Shown here in pieces: positions 2,655 to 11,523 of a DNA stretch of 11,523 nt. Within the stretch, counting starts at the first letter, position 1; each line of letters begins with the position of its first letter. Source of the stretch: Candidatus Pacearchaeota archaeon (GTDB lineage: Archaea > Nanobdellota > Nanobdellia > Pacearchaeales > GW2011-AR1); NCBI GenBank assembly GCA_016866975.1, contig VGKP01000018.1, forward strand, positions 1 through 11,523, in the 5' to 3' direction. Made by a program: the position numbers and the translations under genes. Under the pieces are notes generated by a model that saw only the letters and a program-made list of their open reading frames with translations, searched no databases and was not told the origin of the DNA.

Positions 2655-3073
2655 TATGAGGAGAATGCTTTAAGGATTGTGTCCTTGAAGAGGATTGCAG
2701 CGATAAGTATCCCTATGAGAAATAATAGTAGGACCACCAAAAGCACTATTTTTTTTGTATCCTTACCGGCTGATTTCTTCGATAGAGAGGGTATCGATGG
2801 GATATTTGCTGGAGATGCATTAGTCTGGTTTGCAGGAGCAGTTTGTGGTTGCCCAGCTGAAGTAGTTTGAGGAATTAGCTCTGAAGGCGATGATGCAGAG
2901 ACGGTATTTTGTGCTCCAGTCACTATAGGTGTAGTGCCTCCGGTAAGAGAATTTGCTGCCTCTCTTATCTCGACAGATTTGTATCCTGCGTTTATGAAAG
3001 TCTGCATTGCTTGGTCCAGAGATTCTCCTCTCTCCAATCCGTTCTTTATTCCTGCAATTATTTCATCTTTCAC
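2654..3073 (-). CDS. Tail-anchored hypothetical protein (small helical N-domain, T/S/P/Q/A-rich linker, C-terminal TM)
   Basis: GTG start overlaps the RNase J stop (GTGA). C-terminal KKIVLLVVLLLFLIGILIAAILFK is a single TM helix. Confidence 0.8.
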   Translation of the reverse strand: MKDEIIAGIKNGLERGESLDQAMQTFINAGYKSVEIREAANSLTGGTTPIVTGAQNTVSASSPSELIPQTTSAGQPQTAPANQTNASPANIPSIPSLSKKSAGKDTKKIVLLVVLLLFLIGILIAAILFKDTILKAFSS

Positions 3074-4401
3074 AATTCCAGTACTCCTCCATTTTGCATA
3101 ATGTGGACATTTTTATTGAGTTTGTACCCCATCTCTATAGCAAGATTAGCTCCTGCAAGTAACTTTTTCAGGTCGCCATGCGAGGGCACGACATGTTCTG
3201 GCTTTGTTAACTGGATAAGGTCTCTTAGGTCTTCCCTGCCGCCATGGCCCGAGACGTGGACATTATCAAATATACGCACATGAAACTTTTTAAGTCTTCT
3301 CTCAAGCTGCTCTTTGTTAACTTCATTTATAGGAGCAGGGATTGTCTTCGAGGAGAATATCACTTGGTCTTCAGAATTAAGGCGGAGAGGCAACTGCCCT
3401 TTTGCAAGTCTGTCCAGGATTGATCCAGGTTCTCCTTGGTGTCCCGTGCATACAACTAGATATCTATTTCTGTTCTTGTTCACAATGGAGAGAATTTTAT
3501 CCACTTGTTTTCTATAAGTGCATAATTTTACATCTGATAGAAAAGGTGCTTTCCCTATTCTCTGGGCGGCAAGACAATATTTTATCAGGCTTCTCCCTAC
3601 AAATACAACTTCCCTGTTCAGTCTTTTCCCAAATTCAGTTATTGTCTTGAGTCTTGCTATATGGGACGAGAATGTCGTTATGACCATTCCTGCATTTTGA
3701 TGAGTGGTTGAGAAAAATACGTCTTCCAAAAGTTCTTTCGCAATATTTTCAGAAGGAGTTTTCCTGTCATCAGGAGCATATAAACAATCCACTATCAACG
3801 CTTTCACTCCTATATGTGCCAGCTCTTTTAATCGCCCATAATTTGGCTTGTCTCCAAATACAGGGGAGTTGTCAAGCTTGTAGTCATTGGCATATAAGAT
3901 TATGCCTTTCGATGTGTGGACTGCTATTATTGCGCATTGCAAGGTTGAATGAGTCATGTTGATGAATTCTATCTTATACTGATTGTTTCCTTTAAGCATA
4001 TAAGTACCATTTACCGGTACCGGCACAATTTTGTTCTTTATTCTTTGACCAGCATCTTCCATCAATACTTTTAGTACCTCCATAGTATAAGGGGTTCCAA
4101 CTACATCAGCATTGTATCTAGGGGCATTGTAAGGTATGCCCCCTACATGATCTAGATGAGCATGTGATACAAGTATTGCTCTCACTTTCTCTCTCAGTCC
4201 TTTATTGTCAAGGTAGACATCGTCAGGCAGGGCACCTAACGCGCGCATGCCTTTCTCAGTAGGAATCTTCTCCCTCTCAGATACACCAACTATCGCTGGT
4301 AAGAAAAGTCCAGCGTCGAATAATATAACATCTTGATCTACTTCGAGAGCAGTCATATTTTTTCCCACTTCATTGTATCCTCCTATAGCATGAATTTTCA
4401 T
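3070..4401 (-). CDS. rnj: Ribonuclease J (metallo-beta-lactamase/beta-CASP)
   Basis: N-terminal IGGYNEVGKNMT, LFDAG, SHAHLDHVGG (HxHxDH), MTHS, DYKLD, FSSHIARL, CTGHQGEPGS, HVSGHGGREDL and PSHG. SD-like GAGG upstream. Confidence 0.95.
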   Translation of the reverse strand: MKIHAIGGYNEVGKNMTALEVDQDVILFDAGLFLPAIVGVSEREKIPTEKGMRALGALPDDVYLDNKGLREKVRAILVSHAHLDHVGGIPYNAPRYNADVVGTPYTMEVLKVLMEDAGQRIKNKIVPVPVNGTYMLKGNNQYKIEFINMTHSTLQCAIIAVHTSKGIILYANDYKLDNSPVFGDKPNYGRLKELAHIGVKALIVDCLYAPDDRKTPSENIAKELLEDVFFSTTHQNAGMVITTFSSHIARLKTITEFGKRLNREVVFVGRSLIKYCLAAQRIGKAPFLSDVKLCTYRKQVDKILSIVNKNRNRYLVVCTGHQGEPGSILDRLAKGQLPLRLNSEDQVIFSSKTIPAPINEVNKEQLERRLKKFHVRIFDNVHVSGHGGREDLRDLIQLTKPEHVVPSHGDLKKLLAGANLAIEMGYKLNKNVHIMQNGGVLEL

Positions 4402-5168: not shown

Positions 5169-6062
5169 ATGGATCACCACGAGCATCATCAGCACCATAT
5201 AAGTCGGCTGAAGAAACATCGCAATGTACTTTATATCTTGCTTGCGCTTCTAGTATTAATCCAGACAATTTCATTTGTTGCTTTAAGCTCTCAGGTTTCA
5301 AGACTTGATTCTAGGCTAGACAGCACAAGGAAGGATTTCTCAAACACACTTAAAGAAAATAATGATTACTATCAACAGTTTATACAGCAACTCGATATGC
5401 ATTATCAGAAAAAAATCAATGAGCTTTCAAGTACCGTTGCTGATCAAGAACAAAGTTTTGCTCAGCAACTTAGTCTGCTGAAGGCTAGCCATGAAGATTT
5501 CTCCGGTATAATTTCAGATGCAATCCAAGGAGTTGTAAGCGTAGGCACTGAAAAGTCTGCAGGCAGTGGATTCATAATGCATGAGGATGGATATATTGTG
5601 ACAAATGCTCATGTTATAAATGGCGCGAAGAGCATAAAAGTTGTAAACTCTGATGGCAAGTCATTTCCTGCAGGCCTTGTGGGAATCGATTCTTTTTACG
5701 ACATCGCCTTGCTCAAGGTGGATGGAAAATACAATATCCTTTCTCTTTCAAACTCAGACCAGTTACAGGTGGGGAAGAAAGTTATTGCGATAGGCAATCC
5801 CTATGGCCTGTCGTTTAGCGTGACAGAAGGCATAATCTCCGCAATAGACAGGACCGGGCCTAATGGGAAGGCAGAGTATATACAAACAGATGTTTCTCTT
5901 AATCCTGGGAATTCAGGAGGTCCATTGATAGATACGCAAGGCAAGGTTGTAGGCATTAACAATTTCAAGGTGAGTAGTGCTGAAAGCCTGGGCTTCGCAT
6001 TAGAAAGCAATTCTCTCAAGCAGGTAGTCAATAAAATTGCCAACAGCACTTTGATAAGATGA
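5169..6062 (+). CDS. Membrane-anchored trypsin-like (S1C, HtrA/DegP-type) serine protease without a PDZ domain
   Basis: Catalytic triad motifs VTNAHV, DIALLK and NPGNSGGPL, plus IAIGNPYGL and IQTD. His-rich N-tail, one TM, a coiled-coil stalk. The protein ends right after the protease domain. Confidence 0.9.
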   Translation: MDHHEHHQHHISRLKKHRNVLYILLALLVLIQTISFVALSSQVSRLDSRLDSTRKDFSNTLKENNDYYQQFIQQLDMHYQKKINELSSTVADQEQSFAQQLSLLKASHEDFSGIISDAIQGVVSVGTEKSAGSGFIMHEDGYIVTNAHVINGAKSIKVVNSDGKSFPAGLVGIDSFYDIALLKVDGKYNILSLSNSDQLQVGKKVIAIGNPYGLSFSVTEGIISAIDRTGPNGKAEYIQTDVSLNPGNSGGPLIDTQGKVVGINNFKVSSAESLGFALESNSLKQVVNKIANSTLIR

Positions 6063-6438: not shown

Positions 6439-7614
6439 GTGAGCAAAGGGTTTGGTATATCCGGTTTTGTTCTGGGCATTCTCAGTGTTCTTGGATTTTT
6501 TGTATTTTTCCTCTCTTTGCCCATGGCCATCTTAGGCCTTATCTTTTCTATATTGCAGCTAAGGGAAAACAAGACAGGATTGGCTATTGCAGGCTTAATT
6601 TTGTCAATAATAGGAATAATCGCTTCAAGTGTGATTATCTTCTTATTCACTGTCGGATCTATTTTTGACGAAGCTGGAAAGACTCTGCTGAAGGCAGAGA
6701 GGTCCATAGTCTTGATTAAGACGAATGTGGATTACATTTCGAAGGAAGGAGTAAAAATAAAGGGCGCAGTAGGGGGAGGCTCAGGAGTCATATATTCAGA
6801 GTCTGGTGGAAAGACTTACATTCTGACTAATAGGCACGTTATAGATTGCAAGTATATACACGAATGTTGGGGGATTTCTAATCAGACAATCCGTGTGATG
6901 ATGTTTGACGGTAAGATATACCCTGTGTTGAATACTTACATATCTCCAAACAAAATAGATGTAGCTATTCTTGAGATAGCAAAGCCCTCTGATGGTAACT
7001 ATGCTGTGCCTGAGATAAGAAATTCAAGTAAGAAACTAGAGAAAGTTTTTGCAATAGGATATCCATCATTCTCCGTCAATGCTCGCGAATATAGCAAGGA
7101 GATTGGTAAGATTACTGGATTCAGGGACTTGATTACAGACGATGGGATATCCTTCAAGGTAATAGATTCTGACGCGTTTATCACATTTGGGAGCAGCGGA
7201 GGTGGATTGTTCGACTCAAAAGGAAGATTGTTGGGAATAACTACTTGGGGAAATCTACACCACTCCTATGCTATAAGTATGGAGAGTATAAGGTCTAAGG
7301 AAGATTTTCAGACATGTGGTCCTCAGTCTTACCTTACAGATGAAGGATGTACACCATATTGTTCCGGGGCTATAACTGATGACTTGAGATGTACTATGCC
7401 TTGCACAGGATTCTATTGCAACATGACAAAGATAATCGGGGATGATAATAGATGCAATGATCCTTCACAAGTCTTGGGCGAGGATGGTAAATGTCACTAT
7501 GCTTGTGAGGGTAAGTATACCTATTGCGGCGGGCAGAATGAATACTGTTTCAGTGAAAAATGCACTTCCTGTCCATTTGGATATCGTCTTTACGACGATG
7601 GGTTGTGCAGGTAA
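6439..7614 (+). CDS. Trypsin-like serine protease with N-terminal DUF4190-like 2-TM anchor and C-terminal cysteine-rich repeat domain
   Basis: GFGISGFVLGILS...LAIAGLILSIIG (DUF4190-like). Triad motifs LTNRHV, DVAIL and FGSSGGGLF. The last ~100 aa contain 14 Cys. Confidence 0.85.
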   Translation: MSKGFGISGFVLGILSVLGFFVFFLSLPMAILGLIFSILQLRENKTGLAIAGLILSIIGIIASSVIIFLFTVGSIFDEAGKTLLKAERSIVLIKTNVDYISKEGVKIKGAVGGGSGVIYSESGGKTYILTNRHVIDCKYIHECWGISNQTIRVMMFDGKIYPVLNTYISPNKIDVAILEIAKPSDGNYAVPEIRNSSKKLEKVFAIGYPSFSVNAREYSKEIGKITGFRDLITDDGISFKVIDSDAFITFGSSGGGLFDSKGRLLGITTWGNLHHSYAISMESIRSKEDFQTCGPQSYLTDEGCTPYCSGAITDDLRCTMPCTGFYCNMTKIIGDDNRCNDPSQVLGEDGKCHYACEGKYTYCGGQNEYCFSEKCTSCPFGYRLYDDGLCR

Positions 7615-8072: not shown

Positions 8073-8570
8073 ATGATGAAAAGGGGTCAATTGCAGTTAT
8101 CTTTTGGGATGATATTCTCAATGATTATAATAGCAGTTACTTTATCTATCGCAGGCTACATGATATTTCAATTCATGAAATCTGGAGATACTATCCTCTG
8201 CGCTAAGTTCAAGGAGAAATTGCAAGATTCAATAGATGATGCGTGGAGAAGTGATGGGGCTAGTATAGATACAAGAAAGGAACCTTTGCCATCTCTTCCA
8301 GGAGGTGTCGATGAAGTCTGTTTCGGAAACTCAACACAACCTCTTTTATCTGCAAAGGACAGGGCGAATTTTGATGATTTGAAAGAATTTACTTATCCTT
8401 CCAGAAATCTATATATCTCTCCCCATACATCTTGCAAGGGAGAGTTCAGTTTTACTTTAAAACACATCACATCCAGAGGGTTCTTTTGCGTCCCAGTTAC
8501 TAATAACAAAATAGCAGTACTTATTTCTAAGGATTCGACGGAACCACTAGTCCGTCTGTCACCACTATGA
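8073..8570 (+). CDS. Type IV pilin-like protein (class III signal peptide)
   Basis: MMKRG|QLQLSFGMIFSMIIIAV: short basic leader, G|Q cleavage site, hydrophobic helix. 4 Cys in the soluble domain. Confidence 0.8.
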   Translation: MMKRGQLQLSFGMIFSMIIIAVTLSIAGYMIFQFMKSGDTILCAKFKEKLQDSIDDAWRSDGASIDTRKEPLPSLPGGVDEVCFGNSTQPLLSAKDRANFDDLKEFTYPSRNLYISPHTSCKGEFSFTLKHITSRGFFCVPVTNNKIAVLISKDSTEPLVRLSPL

Positions 8571-9517
8571 ATAAAAGAGGATGGGAATTTAGTTTTGGAT
8601 GGATATTTGCAATAATCGTTGGTGCGGCAATCTTATCACTAGGGCTTTACGCAGCATCAAAGATAGTAAAACAGGGCGAATATAAGGGAGACAGTCTATC
8701 TGCACGAGAGTTAGGTTTGCTGACAACTGCTCTGGAGACTGGTTTGGAAAGTGGAAAGACAGATAAAATTTCTTTTGATATTCCTACAAGAGTTGTCTTC
8801 GACTGTGACTTGCAGGGCTTTTATGGGGTACAAAAAATCTCTATTGGCCGCCCAGGTAAGGACACAGGTATTCCTAGCCAGTTTTCAGGAAAATATTTCT
8901 TTTCAGGTAAGGACTTTGTTGCAAAGGATATCTTAGTCTTAGGAAAGCCTTTTGATTATCCATTCAGAGTGGCAGACGTTTTGATATTATGGTCATCTGA
9001 TTCATCTTATTGTTTCCTCGATCCTCCAGAACAGATGGAAAAGGAGATTAAGTCTCTTGTCAAGGACAATCGCGCCATTAACTCAAGTCTACAGGTTTTG
9101 TCTTACGATAAGAAAGAAAGTTGTAAGAGGGGAAGTCAGAAAGTTTGCTTTGGAAAGGTTACTGGTTGCGACATCTCAGTTTATGAAAGCTTGATTAAGA
9201 AAGGCTCAAGGACGATTTATGTGGACTCTTCTCAGAATAACAATGTCTTCGTCTGGGCAGGCATCTTCTCAGATCCAGATGTATATGAATGCCAGTTTAA
9301 AAGATTGATGAAGCGAGCCTCGTCGCTGTCTTCTCTTTATCAGGAGAAATCAATACTCCTTAATGGTAAAGGGTGCACTTCTTCTTTGACAGGATCTCTC
9401 GAGTCATTTTCTCAGGCTACACGATTGTATAATTCCAGTTCTGATCTTGCAAAAATATCTTTTCTTTCACAGTCTTTAGGAGGTGAGAATGACAAGTTAT
9501 CTTGTCCGGTCTTCTAA
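8567..9517 (+). CDS. Large type IV pilin-like protein (class III signal peptide)
   Basis: MNKRG|WEFSFGWIFAIIVGAAIL. 8 Cys. ATGA overlap with the previous gene. Confidence 0.8.
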   Translation: MNKRGWEFSFGWIFAIIVGAAILSLGLYAASKIVKQGEYKGDSLSARELGLLTTALETGLESGKTDKISFDIPTRVVFDCDLQGFYGVQKISIGRPGKDTGIPSQFSGKYFFSGKDFVAKDILVLGKPFDYPFRVADVLILWSSDSSYCFLDPPEQMEKEIKSLVKDNRAINSSLQVLSYDKKESCKRGSQKVCFGKVTGCDISVYESLIKKGSRTIYVDSSQNNNVFVWAGIFSDPDVYECQFKRLMKRASSLSSLYQEKSILLNGKGCTSSLTGSLESFSQATRLYNSSSDLAKISFLSQSLGGENDKLSCPVF

Positions 9518-10016
9518 AGGGCAAATCAAGATACAGGAGATGGCATTCGTTCTTGTTGCCTTGATGATATTTTTCTCAGTAGCAATAATATTTTATATTT
9601 CACTGAACAGTGCAGATAGAAAAGATAAGGTTCTTGAGCAGAGGGAAAATGAGGTATTGGAAACATTGAGGAAACTTGCAGATAGCCCAGAGTTAAGATG
9701 GAGTGATTCTCATGAGGAATGCAATGGCTGCATAGACCTAGATAAAGCCATCCTACTTAAAGATCCTCAAAGGAACCAACAAGTCAGGGCTCTCTGGAAC
9801 ATGGGTGCACTATCATTGGAAGTTATATCGCCATCTAGGACAGGAGAATGTTCTATAGGGAACTATCCTTTATGCAAGACTATCACTCTCATTAATTCTA
9901 CGATAGGCTCACGCATTCAATATGAGGGAGCCTTCGTCTCTCTATGCTGGAGAGAGCAGCAATCTAGGATATGTGAGATAGGAAAAATAATCGGAAGTCC
10001 TAAGGAGTTAAGGTGA
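9489..10016 (+). CDS. Type IV pilin-like protein (class III signal peptide)
   Basis: ATG 9489 follows GGAGGTGA at 9479-9486 (archaeal SD). ...SSKG|QIKIQEMAFVLVALMIFF. 6 Cys including a CxxC. Confidence 0.8.
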   Translation: MTSYLVRSSKGQIKIQEMAFVLVALMIFFSVAIIFYISLNSADRKDKVLEQRENEVLETLRKLADSPELRWSDSHEECNGCIDLDKAILLKDPQRNQQVRALWNMGALSLEVISPSRTGECSIGNYPLCKTITLINSTIGSRIQYEGAFVSLCWREQQSRICEIGKIIGSPKELR

Positions 10017-10510
10017 AAAATTCAAAAGGTCAGGAAGAAGTTGTCGGATTTGTAGTGATAGTCGTACTAGTTGCAGTAGTGTTTGTACTTATGTTGGGAT
10101 TCTCTCCTAAAGAGCCAATTGTTAAAGAGAATGCCAGTAAAGACATAAGGCATTTCTTAGAGAGTCTAAGGGTATATACAACAGATTGTAGGTTATCCGA
10201 GCAAGTTCCATTGGAATATAAGGGATTGATAGGCTCCTGCTATAGTGGTCGGGTTTGTCTATCTGGCAAGAAAGCGTGTGATGTTTTGAACAGTACAACT
10301 AATGATATCTTGACAAAGTCATTTCCTAATGGAAAAGACTATCCTATTAAAGGAGTTCGCTTTAATATTTATTATAATGAATCTACAGGGTCAGAGAGTA
10401 ATATAGCTTCACTCTCTCAAGGTAATTGCTCAACAAGTCACAGGTCAGCAGAAGACTTCTTCCCTCTAGGACTAGGACAAGTCACTGTAAGCCTTAAGAT
10501 ATGTTATTAG
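10013..10510 (+). CDS. Type IV pilin-like protein (class III signal peptide)
   Basis: GTG start overlaps the previous stop (GTGA). MKNSKG|QEEVVGFVVIVVLVAVVFV. 6 Cys. Confidence 0.8.
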   Translation: MKNSKGQEEVVGFVVIVVLVAVVFVLMLGFSPKEPIVKENASKDIRHFLESLRVYTTDCRLSEQVPLEYKGLIGSCYSGRVCLSGKKACDVLNSTTNDILTKSFPNGKDYPIKGVRFNIYYNESTGSESNIASLSQGNCSTSHRSAEDFFPLGLGQVTVSLKICY

Positions 10511-10866
10511 ACGGATATTTTAATATTCAATGTGTCTATGACAACTACCGGTTTTATCCTCTCTCTTTTTCCAGTCTTTTCAAATATCAGCTCAATAAAC
10601 CCAAATCTCTCAAGCAATTTAAGGTCTTCATGGACTGCCTTAAAATCTCTTCCTAAAAGCTTGGCAAGATGATATAATGAGCCAGGTTTCTTTGTTTTTA
10701 GGGTATGGAGGATACGCGCCTTTTCATTGCTTAGTAGCTGCCTGAATGCAGAAATGCCTTCAAAGTCATAATTCTCTTTTTCTCCACTAAACTTCTTGAA
10801 GAAAATAGCAAAAGTGCCTCCTTCATCAGTTATAGTTATCTCTCTAGTTTTAGTTTTCGTCGACAT
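10507..10866 (-). CDS. HVO_A0114-like winged helix-turn-helix DNA-binding protein
   Basis: RQLLSNEKARILHTLKTKKPGSLYHLAKLLGRDFKAVHEDLKLLERFGFIEL followed by a wing (KTGKRERIKP); matches the recalled family pattern. Confidence 0.85.
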   Translation of the reverse strand: MSTKTKTREITITDEGGTFAIFFKKFSGEKENYDFEGISAFRQLLSNEKARILHTLKTKKPGSLYHLAKLLGRDFKAVHEDLKLLERFGFIELIFEKTGKRERIKPVVVIDTLNIKISV

Positions 10867-10884
10867 TTTATCTAATAGCTGTAC

Positions 10885-10982
10885 TTTATATACATATATA
10901 TTAGTAATATATTTAGTATATATATGTTTCTATATTACATATATGTTATTAAATAACATATATTGTAAATTAACATATAATG
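10885..10982. repeat. Very AT-rich array (about 11% GC) with six ACATATA copies and several inverted repeats; candidate operator
   Basis: ACATATA at 10892, 10937, 10956 and 10973 (+), and at 10921-10927 and 10940-10946 (-). 12-bp perfect inverted repeat 10939-10950/10952-10963. Confidence 0.65.
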
Positions 10983-11020
10983 AATCAAAAAAAGGTCGTG
11001 TCTTCCGATATAGTAGTATC

Positions 11021-11034
11021 AAAAGCTTTAAATA
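11021..11034 (+). promoter_or_regulatory. BRE+TATA AAAAGC-TTTAAATA, candidate distal S-layer promoter
   Basis: Close match to a strong archaeal promoter consensus, about 255 nt upstream of the S-layer ATG. Confidence 0.55.
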
Positions 11035-11082
11035 CCTTCAGCAAAGAGTTAAGAGTTTATTGCGAACATCTATTATCATGAA

Positions 11083-11099
11083 GAGAAAGTTTTTTAAAG
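11083..11099 (+). promoter_or_regulatory. BRE+TATA (GAGAAAG...TTTTAAAG), candidate proximal S-layer promoter
   Basis: Applying the 21-nt spacing seen elsewhere in the window predicts a start near 11120, where the first hairpin of the structured element begins. Confidence 0.5.
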
Positions 11100-11118
11100 C
11101 AACATATCTAAGATACTT

Positions 11119-11255
11119 TGCTCTTATTGTATCAATAAGGGCACTGGCCAAGATGATGTATCTTTGATACTGAAAACTTGTGTCAGAGCAACATGCTCGA
11201 CACGGCCAAGGCGGATTGCTTAGCAATCTCCTCTAAGAGGGATCTACGGATCGCC
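11119..11255 (+). ncRNA. Highly structured RNA element, probably the 5' leader of the S-layer mRNA
   Basis: Six hairpins and two closing helices found by eye (see findings), including a C(UACG)G tetraloop. No known RNA family recognised. Confidence 0.65.
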
Positions 11256-11272
11256 AATTCCACACAGATGAA

Positions 11273-11279
11273 AGGAGGT
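11273..11279 (+). promoter_or_regulatory. Shine-Dalgarno AGGAGGT
   Basis: 9 nt upstream of ATG 11289. Confidence 0.8.
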
Positions 11280-11288
11280 ATAAAAAAA

Positions 11289-11523
11289 ATGATGAATTTT
11301 AGAAAAATTGTATCGGTGCTGACGAGTGCAGCTATGCTCGGTTCAACAGTCGCATTGGCAACTGCAGCTAGTTATCCACAACCTTTCGTAAAGAATGGTA
11401 TGGCTGACGCTGCTGTTGTGTATGGTTCTTCTGCTGCAACAACAGACGTTGTCGCTGCTTTAGACATTCACAAGCAATTGACCAGTCAACTATTGAAAGA
11501 AGCTATAGTCACTCCAAGCAGTT
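11289..11523 (+). CDS. S-layer protein, N-terminal part (runs off window)
   Basis: Manual translation MMNFRKIVSVLTSAAMLGSTVALATAASYPQPFVKNGMADAAVVYGSSAATTDVVAALDI... shows a Sec signal peptide plus the YP.PFV..G..D.AVVYG..AA..D..AA.DI pattern of Methanococcus-type/DPANN S-layer N-domains. Confidence 0.88.
   Translation, partial: MMNFRKIVSVLTSAAMLGSTVALATAASYPQPFVKNGMADAAVVYGSSAATTDVVAALDIHKQLTSQLLKEAIVTPSS

Follow-up and report, generated by a model that had tools for sequence, protein, structure and literature searches.

The S-layer protein is usually the most abundant protein in an archaeal cell, and to our knowledge how archaea keep its mRNA abundant has hardly been studied, and is not known for the DPANN lineages, whose members cannot so far be cultivated on their own. 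The DNA analysed here (the window, 11,523 nucleotides) is an entire 11.5-kb contig of an 806-kb, 89%-complete Candidatus Pacearchaeota genome, and its plus strand ends inside an S-layer gene. From the letters alone, an earlier reading (the original prediction) had drawn the segment in front of this gene, 11119-11255, as an unrecognised, multi-domain structured RNA leader, and had proposed comparing it with shuffled sequences, with Rfam and with the regions upstream of orthologous S-layer genes. Is this segment a genuine conserved RNA, and what could it do for the S-layer mRNA?

Fold and conservation of the S-layer leader

The open reading frame of the S-layer gene begins at ATG 11289 and is truncated by the contig end at 11523 on the plus strand, where all the leader features described below also lie. 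It matches Pfam PF05124 (S_layer_C) at 31.9 bits against a cut-off of 23.9, and its product starts with a signal peptide followed by SYPQPFV; complete orthologues are 780-879 aa long. Ahead of the start codon lies a Shine-Dalgarno (SD) core, GGAGGUA (11274-11280), which together with A11273 forms AGGAGGU, 7 nt complementary to the 16S rRNA 3′ end GGAUCACCUCCU found on contig C6 of the same genome. With its 5′ end predicted from the TATA-like element, the leader measures about 170 nt (11119-11288). The S-layer frame remains open upstream through the structured region (11178-11288, beginning with TTG 11178 and including an in-frame ATG at 11193), into which gene callers could over-extend the gene. 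An N-terminal coding extension through this region was considered and rejected: an in-frame stop separates the junction described below from the conserved N-terminus in 44 of 50 homologues, so the leader region is non-coding and the open frame of the window is there by chance.

The minimum free energy (MFE) of 11119-11255 is -53.5 kcal/mol, compared with -32.6 ± 3.5 kcal/mol for 200 dinucleotide shuffles, none of which folded as well (z = -6.0), while the minus strand folds less well (z = -4.7). The proposed comparison with shuffled sequences was thus borne out, and the centroid fold coincides with the original drawing, its helices lying at the same positions. The segment had also been described as richer in GC than its flanks, which is true of the upstream spacer (0.38-0.46 versus 0.15-0.30) but not of the coding sequence, whose GC content is similar. 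Similarly, the SD is left unpaired within the 137 nt, as had been claimed, but once the SD is included the MFE fold pairs UUCC 11259-11262 with its GGAG. As anticipated, no Rfam 15 family was matched at gathering thresholds over the whole window; at E values up to 10 over 10850-11523, the only matches were snoR1 (14 bits, E 5.9) and ST7-OT3_1 (15.7 bits), both noise. A tRNA-like cloverleaf was likewise rejected, as ARAGORN predicted none, no Rfam tRNA match was obtained, and the junction has loops of 3-4 nt on a 3-bp closing stem.

The part of the leader closest to the gene, domain 3 (11210-11255), is a perfect four-way junction, with a covariance model match of 58-67 bits, covariation and RNAalifold in its support. 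Its closing stem of 3 bp joins GGC 11210-11212 to GCC 11253-11255 and encloses H4 (11214-11219 with 11223-11228), H5 (CCUC-UAA-GAGG, 11230-11233 with 11237-11240) and H6 (GAUC 11241-11244 with GAUC 11249-11252, capped by a C(UACG)G loop). The original drawing had these helices right but missed one pair, G11213.U11229, which covaries (GU in 47, AU in 8 and CG, GC or UA in 3 of 59 homologues). Because these two bases pair, H4 is 7 bp long and no nucleotide of the junction is left unpaired.

When 200 genomes from the same GTDB family were searched at the DNA level, the 3′ part of the leader, from domain 3 to the SD, was recovered in several genera. In a first MAFFT alignment of seven copies, 99.2% of the cells were paired, with nine compensatory pairs, against 40-51% when the partners were slid by 1-3 columns. 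A pooled alignment of 59 distinct homologues, fitted to the covariance model, had 97.7% of cells paired and changes on both sides at 18 of 19 pairs; none of 500 shuffles was as good, and slid partners paired in 42-52% of cells. From an independent plain MAFFT alignment of 27 sequences, RNAalifold obtained the same junction de novo, with 14 of 17 pairs compensatory. Compensating mutations have preserved the four-way junction in dozens of genera. The covariation sought upstream of orthologous S-layer genes was found in domain 3, the one domain that is widely conserved.

Two of the four junction-flanking positions hold conserved G.U pairs (47/59 and 29/59), which would be A-C on the other strand and therefore fix the junction to the plus strand. 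Covariance model scores show the same polarity (24-77 bits on the plus strand versus 13-21 on the minus). In at least 32 of the 59 sequences H6 ends in a UNCG-type tetraloop, the H4 loop is AU-rich and ranges from 0 to 11 nt, and no conserved unpaired junction bases were found among the 59 homologues. H5 is CCUC/GAGG in 36/59, with CCCC/GGGG and CCCU/AGGG as covariants, and a GCCAAU or GCCAAG tail is conserved as well. From there an A-rich, single-stranded linker of 18 nt (11256-11273, consensus ..GUACAAAGCUGAAA) leads to the SD. In 47 of 58 homologues, 17-19 nt separate the junction from GGAGG, and the consensus through the SD reads GUACAAAGCUGAAAGGRGGUU.

A first covariance model gave exactly one match per genome in 24 of 151 family genomes, that of the window included. 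With the refined model, the junction was detected in 18 of 105 family genomes, as one weak match in 45 genomes of the order's other families, and in none of 133 genomes from about 50 other families of the class. It was found only within one GTDB family of Pacearchaeota/Woesearchaeota, and each match lies upstream of the same S_layer_C gene. Relatives found by the S-layer protein come from MAGs labelled Candidatus Pacearchaeota, Woesearchaeota or Nanoarchaeota. When 80 loci were picked by S-layer protein similarity alone, 36 of them carried the junction, all on the coding strand and in the same place, and about half of the family's S-layer orthologues are without it. We also considered a repeat or mobile element and rejected it, since the junction is single-copy in its own genome, where the next best model matches have E values of about 0.9-1.6. 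These results make it very probable that the segment is a genuine conserved structured mRNA leader. The central claim of the original prediction, an unrecognised structured leader before an S-layer gene, has accordingly held up, with no Rfam match, strong covariation and a PF05124 gene downstream.

Promoter elements, the first hairpin and interchangeable modules

Upstream of the leader, two BRE/TATA-like elements are found on the plus strand. The distal one (AAAAGC-TTTAAATA, 11021-11034), a putative promoter element, is kept in nearly all orthologous loci, and the proximal one (GAAAG-TTTTTTAAAG, 11085-11099) includes GAAAGCTTTTTAAAG, which is nearly invariant across loci. Orthologous loci share the distal element as AAAGCTTTATAAATA and the proximal one as GAAAGCTTTTTAAAG, and of the 26 loci in which both were detected (including L003 and the L032-L054 layout), 24 have them at a spacing of 62-64 bp. 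This tandem spacing corresponds to about six helical turns, and the sequence in between is poorly conserved. The two elements may be tandem promoters, or a promoter accompanied by an architectural element.

An archaeal transcription start site (TSS) is expected about 27-30 nt after the first T of the TATA box, and the proximal element predicts one at approximately 11117-11121. The original prediction had placed the start of H1 at such a site, and this was confirmed as far as a predicted TSS allows. H1, an 11-bp hairpin with one U.G pair and a UAU loop (11119-11143; 11119-11129 with 11133-11143), is present in both the MFE and the centroid fold and is predicted to be 5′-terminal, and in 42 of 88 leaders, the window's among them, the best local hairpin begins 27-30 nt past the first T of the proximal TATA. 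The position of H1 is conserved and its letters differ between loci with the pairing kept (ACUCUA/UAGAGU, ACUCCG/CGGAGU, CGCUC/GAGCG and GCUCUC/GAGAGU). The true promoter, or a further one, could instead be the distal TATA-like element, which lies 64 bp upstream, and H1 would then not be 5′-terminal on every transcript. The proximal TATA lies 84-256 nt from the SD in 100 distinct leaders (189 nt in the window) and 33 to 142 nt from the junction across loci; because the latter distance can be as short as 33 nt, some lineages have no room for H1 or domain 2.

Between H1 and the four-way junction, domain 2 (11145-11208) forms a three-way junction in the centroid fold. It is closed by UGGCC 11145-11149 with GGCCA 11204-11208 and has the arms H2 (GUAUC/GAUAC) and H3 (UGUC-GAGCA/UGCUC-GACA). 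Here the original drawing stands in part: GUAUC/GAUAC and UGUC-GAGC/GCUC-GACA are both in the centroid, but the inner pairing of the MFE fold differs and the CAAG/CUUG helix that had been drawn is absent from the window's own fold. That helix does appear in the MFE folds of two relatives (L083 and L207), and the independent MFE folds of L032, L083 and L207 all have the three-way architecture of domain 2. Domain 2 is confined to close relatives: the closing CUGGCC/GGCC helix, UGUCAGAG and CAUGCUCGACACGGCC are common to the same genus (L032, L058) and to L083, L207 and L265 (MAG/metagenome contigs), and the H2 arm is swapped for unrelated hairpins in relatives and in an RNA-library contig. A metagenome scan with a loose pattern for domain 2 returned 120 stretches, two of them true relatives (L207 and L265).

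The 44 protein-selected orthologues without the four-way junction have long leaders too. In many of them (L139, L141, L117, L007 and others) the junction is replaced, at the same distance from the SD, by a simple GUUGUC-AUA-GACAAC hairpin. This hairpin stands about 38-40 nt before the end of the SD and resembles H4 of some junctions (GGGUUGU-UUA-ACAACUC in L039). The hairpin and junction forms may be related, with H5 and H6 either gained or lost.

Upstream of the simple hairpin, a further module contains invariant AUAGGG and CCCUAU, the latter in a hairpin loop (L139:582-660, L122:570-657, L111:566-653, L133 and about 30 other S-layer leaders, all outside the window). The flanks of CCCUAU are mutually complementary in 34 of 35 leaders with quite different letters, and their mean duplex energy is -10.6 kcal/mol versus -4.0 kcal/mol for shuffles; pairing in this class was scored by a per-sequence duplex test, as register shifts in MAFFT ruled out column-wise counting. 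The AUAGGG/CCCUAU pairing covaries as well, to GUGGGG/CCCCAC and GUAGGG/CCCUAC (L149, L150). On this comparative evidence, the module is probably an H-type pseudoknot, apparently undescribed. Pseudoknot and four-way junction occur together in L133 (same record as L008), and the H3 loop of L058, a relative of the same genus, still reads CCCUAU; for these reasons the window's domain 2 appears to have arisen from the pseudoknot module by degeneration. Across lineages, the middle module ranges from none to the pseudoknot.

Parts of the window are present as assembled contigs in four metatranscriptome runs. One RNA-library contig spans 11221-11467 at about 98% identity, a second, from a relative, spans 11227-11484, and in a third the 3′ half of domain 2 is continuous with the four-way junction of a relative. 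RNA-library contigs continue from the junction into the coding sequence. As assembled contigs they may include contaminating DNA and do not resolve RNA ends; none reaches upstream of 11173, which says nothing about the TSS. They fit co-transcription of the leader with the S-layer gene, and no oligo-T stretch, the usual archaeal termination signal, occurs between the junction and the ATG.

A proposed stabilising leader and its alternatives

As possible functions, the original prediction had listed a stabilising or cis-regulatory element, a riboswitch-like sensor and an independent non-coding RNA; the first of these fits best and the other two are disfavoured. Our best reading, to which we give a probability of about one half, is a modular, constitutive cis-leader that stabilises the S-layer mRNA and supports its translation. 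It is favoured because the modules are interchangeable, the caps are stable tetraloops, there is no conserved unpaired core, a hairpin sits at the predicted 5′ end, and the target is a single, very highly expressed gene. Under this model, H1 would be the 5′-terminal hairpin of a transcript initiated at the proximal BRE/TATA promoter, domain 2 a lineage-specific three-way junction within a modular leader, and the four-way junction a core held 17-19 nt upstream of a very strong SD. H1 and the compact junction would occlude the 5′ end and stop 5′-to-3′ decay by the organism's RNase J, and a 30S subunit at the strong SD just downstream of the junction would reinforce the block. The outcome would be long life and steady translation for the cell's most abundant mRNA.

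We infer both the stabilising effect and the nuclease involved. The window encodes an RNase J-family beta-CASP ribonuclease of 443 aa on the minus strand (3070-4401; TIGR00649 at 388 bits, just under the cut-off of 400, PF22505 at 78.5 bits, and PF07521), and an aCPSF1-like beta-CASP enzyme is encoded on another contig. By homology, this shows that the reduced genome keeps a candidate 5′-to-3′ exonuclease. We also considered a leader that insulates the SD and found no support for it: across 54 homologues, the median unpaired probability of GGAGG was 0.245 with native leaders and 0.285 with shuffled ones (20 dinucleotide shuffles each; Wilcoxon p = 0.70), so accessibility is no better than with shuffled leaders.

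Some features of the junction are not obviously needed by a generic stabiliser. The nearly invariant H5 (identical in 36/59), the G.U pairs at the junction and the GCCAAU tail hint at a specific partner. As the main rival to the stabilising leader, though with a clearly lower probability, the four-way junction may be an operator at which an RNA-binding protein governs how the S-layer mRNA is translated or degraded. The protein could be unassembled S-layer protein acting in feedback, or one of ribosomal type, and binding next to the SD would block or aid loading of the 30S subunit. The near invariance of CCUC/GAGG in H5, the wobbles kept at two of four junction-flanking positions, the GCCAAU/GCCAAG tail, the strict spacing of 17-19 nt to the SD and the presence of one target gene per genome all speak for such an operator. 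However, the loops are variable or generic stable tetraloops, the H5 stem itself covaries (CCCC/GGGG, CCCU/AGGG), which implies that its sequence is not absolutely required, and a simple hairpin takes the place of the junction in about half of the orthologous leaders, which implies that any such circuit is dispensable. More tentatively still, the four-way junction and the AUAGGG/CCCUAU pseudoknot module might together be the sensor or operator of a dedicated post-transcriptional S-layer circuit, responding to unassembled subunits or a small ligand. If this unlikely proposal were true, it would be the first riboregulator class specific to Pacearchaeota, setting S-layer output in host-dependent DPANN archaea.

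That the leader is a riboswitch-like sensor, tuning S-layer synthesis to a metabolite or ion, seems very improbable. A multi-helix junction in a 5′ leader near the SD would suit it, and the pseudoknot of sister lineages, with its invariant AUAGGG/CCCUAU, is more aptamer-like, yet that pseudoknot is absent from the window itself. The junction is fully paired and without the conserved unpaired nucleotides that mark riboswitches, and its loops vary in length and sequence or are UNCG-type caps. Nor is an expression platform apparent, since there is no T-run before the ATG and the median probability of pairing between the SD and the junction is 0.02.

The same partition-function folding weighs heavily against an SD-sequestering switch or RNA thermometer, in which CCUC(U) of H5 would pair in cis either with the mimic GAGG (ON) or with the true SD (OFF). 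The idea draws on the resemblance of AAUCUCCUC to the 16S 3′ end GAUCACCUCCU, by which H5 amounts to an in-cis copy of the SD/anti-SD helix. However, the SD pairs with any junction nucleotide at a median probability of 0.02, native leaders leave SD accessibility unchanged relative to shuffles, and the four-way junction is thermodynamically dominant, so that we give this switch little credence.

Equally hard to credit is a small RNA, independent or processed (a box C/D-like sRNA in domain 2 among the options), that just happens to sit in front of the S-layer gene: the compact, stable fold, the AUGAUGU ... CUGA of the window's domain 2 and the weak snoR1 match speak for it, but that match is far under the gathering threshold of 49 bits, C′/D′ boxes are missing, the C/D-like letters are not kept in L032, L058, L083, L207, L265 or the X21 contig, no oligo-T terminator precedes the ATG, contigs from RNA libraries extend past the junction into the coding sequence, and the distance to the SD is fixed. 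A box C/D motif or k-turn in domain 2 was itself rejected, as AUGAUGU matches the C box RUGAUGA at 6 of 7 positions, there is a single CUGA, AAA stands between CUGA and the CAAG/CUUG stem, and the letters are not kept in the six relatives.

Comparison with known leaders and the surrounding locus

The stabilising cis-leader that we prefer has precedents of its kind. In Lactobacillus, the structured 5′ UTR of slpA (UTLS) accounts for the long half-life of the mRNA (PMC3666127). The Pacearchaeota leader resembles it in being a long, structured 5′ UTR before an S-layer gene and in combining strong promoters, often in tandem, with a strong SD. It differs in having no homology of sequence or fold, in its DPANN host and in a core four-way junction that is supported by covariation and keeps a constant distance to the SD, and its stabilising effect is a proposal. 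Two of the features that define the class of S-layer leaders are found here as well: a long 5′ UTR, as predicted from the TSS, directly before the structural gene and stable structure that includes the predicted 5′ end; the third, a longer mRNA half-life or raised expression, belongs to the proposed mechanism. Among archaea, Methanosarcina slmA1 has a mapped 5′ UTR of 154 nt, more than 91% conserved between species, with predicted structures, a TATA promoter and a role stated to be unknown (PMC3361143). Both are long, conserved, structured leaders of archaeal S-layer genes with a TATA promoter; the sequences are unrelated, the S-layer families differ, and conservation of slmA1 means identity among three close species, whereas here it means that paired positions covary in dozens of genera.

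Where RNase E is lacking, mRNAs such as aprE, ermC and cryIIIA are protected by a 5′ stem-loop and a strong SD, and in organisms dependent on RNase J such a stem-loop and strong binding of ribosomes are what is known to make mRNAs long-lived (PMC3997798). With these Bacillus leaders, of which STAB-SD is one type, the present leader shares a predicted 5′-terminal stem-loop, a strong ribosome binding site and a genome that encodes RNase J, while its four-way junction has no counterpart in aprE, ermC or cryIIIA. A stabiliser of the STAB-SD type was rejected: STAB-SD requires an accessible SD-like box, whereas the GAGG strand of H5 forms pairs with CCUC in 98% of cells, with covariation between the two. 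Compared with box C/D sRNAs, domain 2 of the window likewise has AUGAUGU and CUGA flanking a hairpin, but a canonical k-turn does not allow the 3-nt spacer found on the D side, and there are no C′/D′ boxes.

Full-text literature searches returned no account of an S-layer leader from DPANN archaea. As a kind, structured leaders of S-layer mRNAs are known; the fold, the DPANN host, the support from covariation and the modular relatives are new. The covariation-supported four-way junction could become a new Rfam family and could serve to mark S-layer genes in Pacearchaeota MAGs, and in archaeal genetics the leader could be used as a strong expression leader. Its geometry is testable, with a hairpin at the predicted TSS, a junction 17-19 nt from a strong SD and a genome that encodes RNase J. 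The natural module swaps, of four-way junction for simple hairpin and of three-way junction for pseudoknot or nothing, allow a dissection of which parts matter.

The divergent upstream neighbour of the S-layer gene encodes an HVO_A0114-type winged-helix regulator on the minus strand (10507-10866; PF25212, 65.9 bits). Between this gene and the S-layer promoters lies an AT-rich array of ACATATA/ATATATGT palindromes (10885-10982), likely an operator array. By eye, similar ATATATGTT...ACATATAT repeats, together with the regulator gene, are also seen at orthologous loci. Further upstream, four overlapping plus-strand ORFs (8073-10510; 165, 316, 177 and 165 aa) have no Pfam match, and in L055 and L056 the regulator and S-layer genes likewise follow ORFs of similar size and order. 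Near the S-layer locus, the plus strand also carries two genes for trypsin-like serine proteases (PF13365, E 2.6e-34 and 3.8e-19), at 5169-6062 and 6439-7614.
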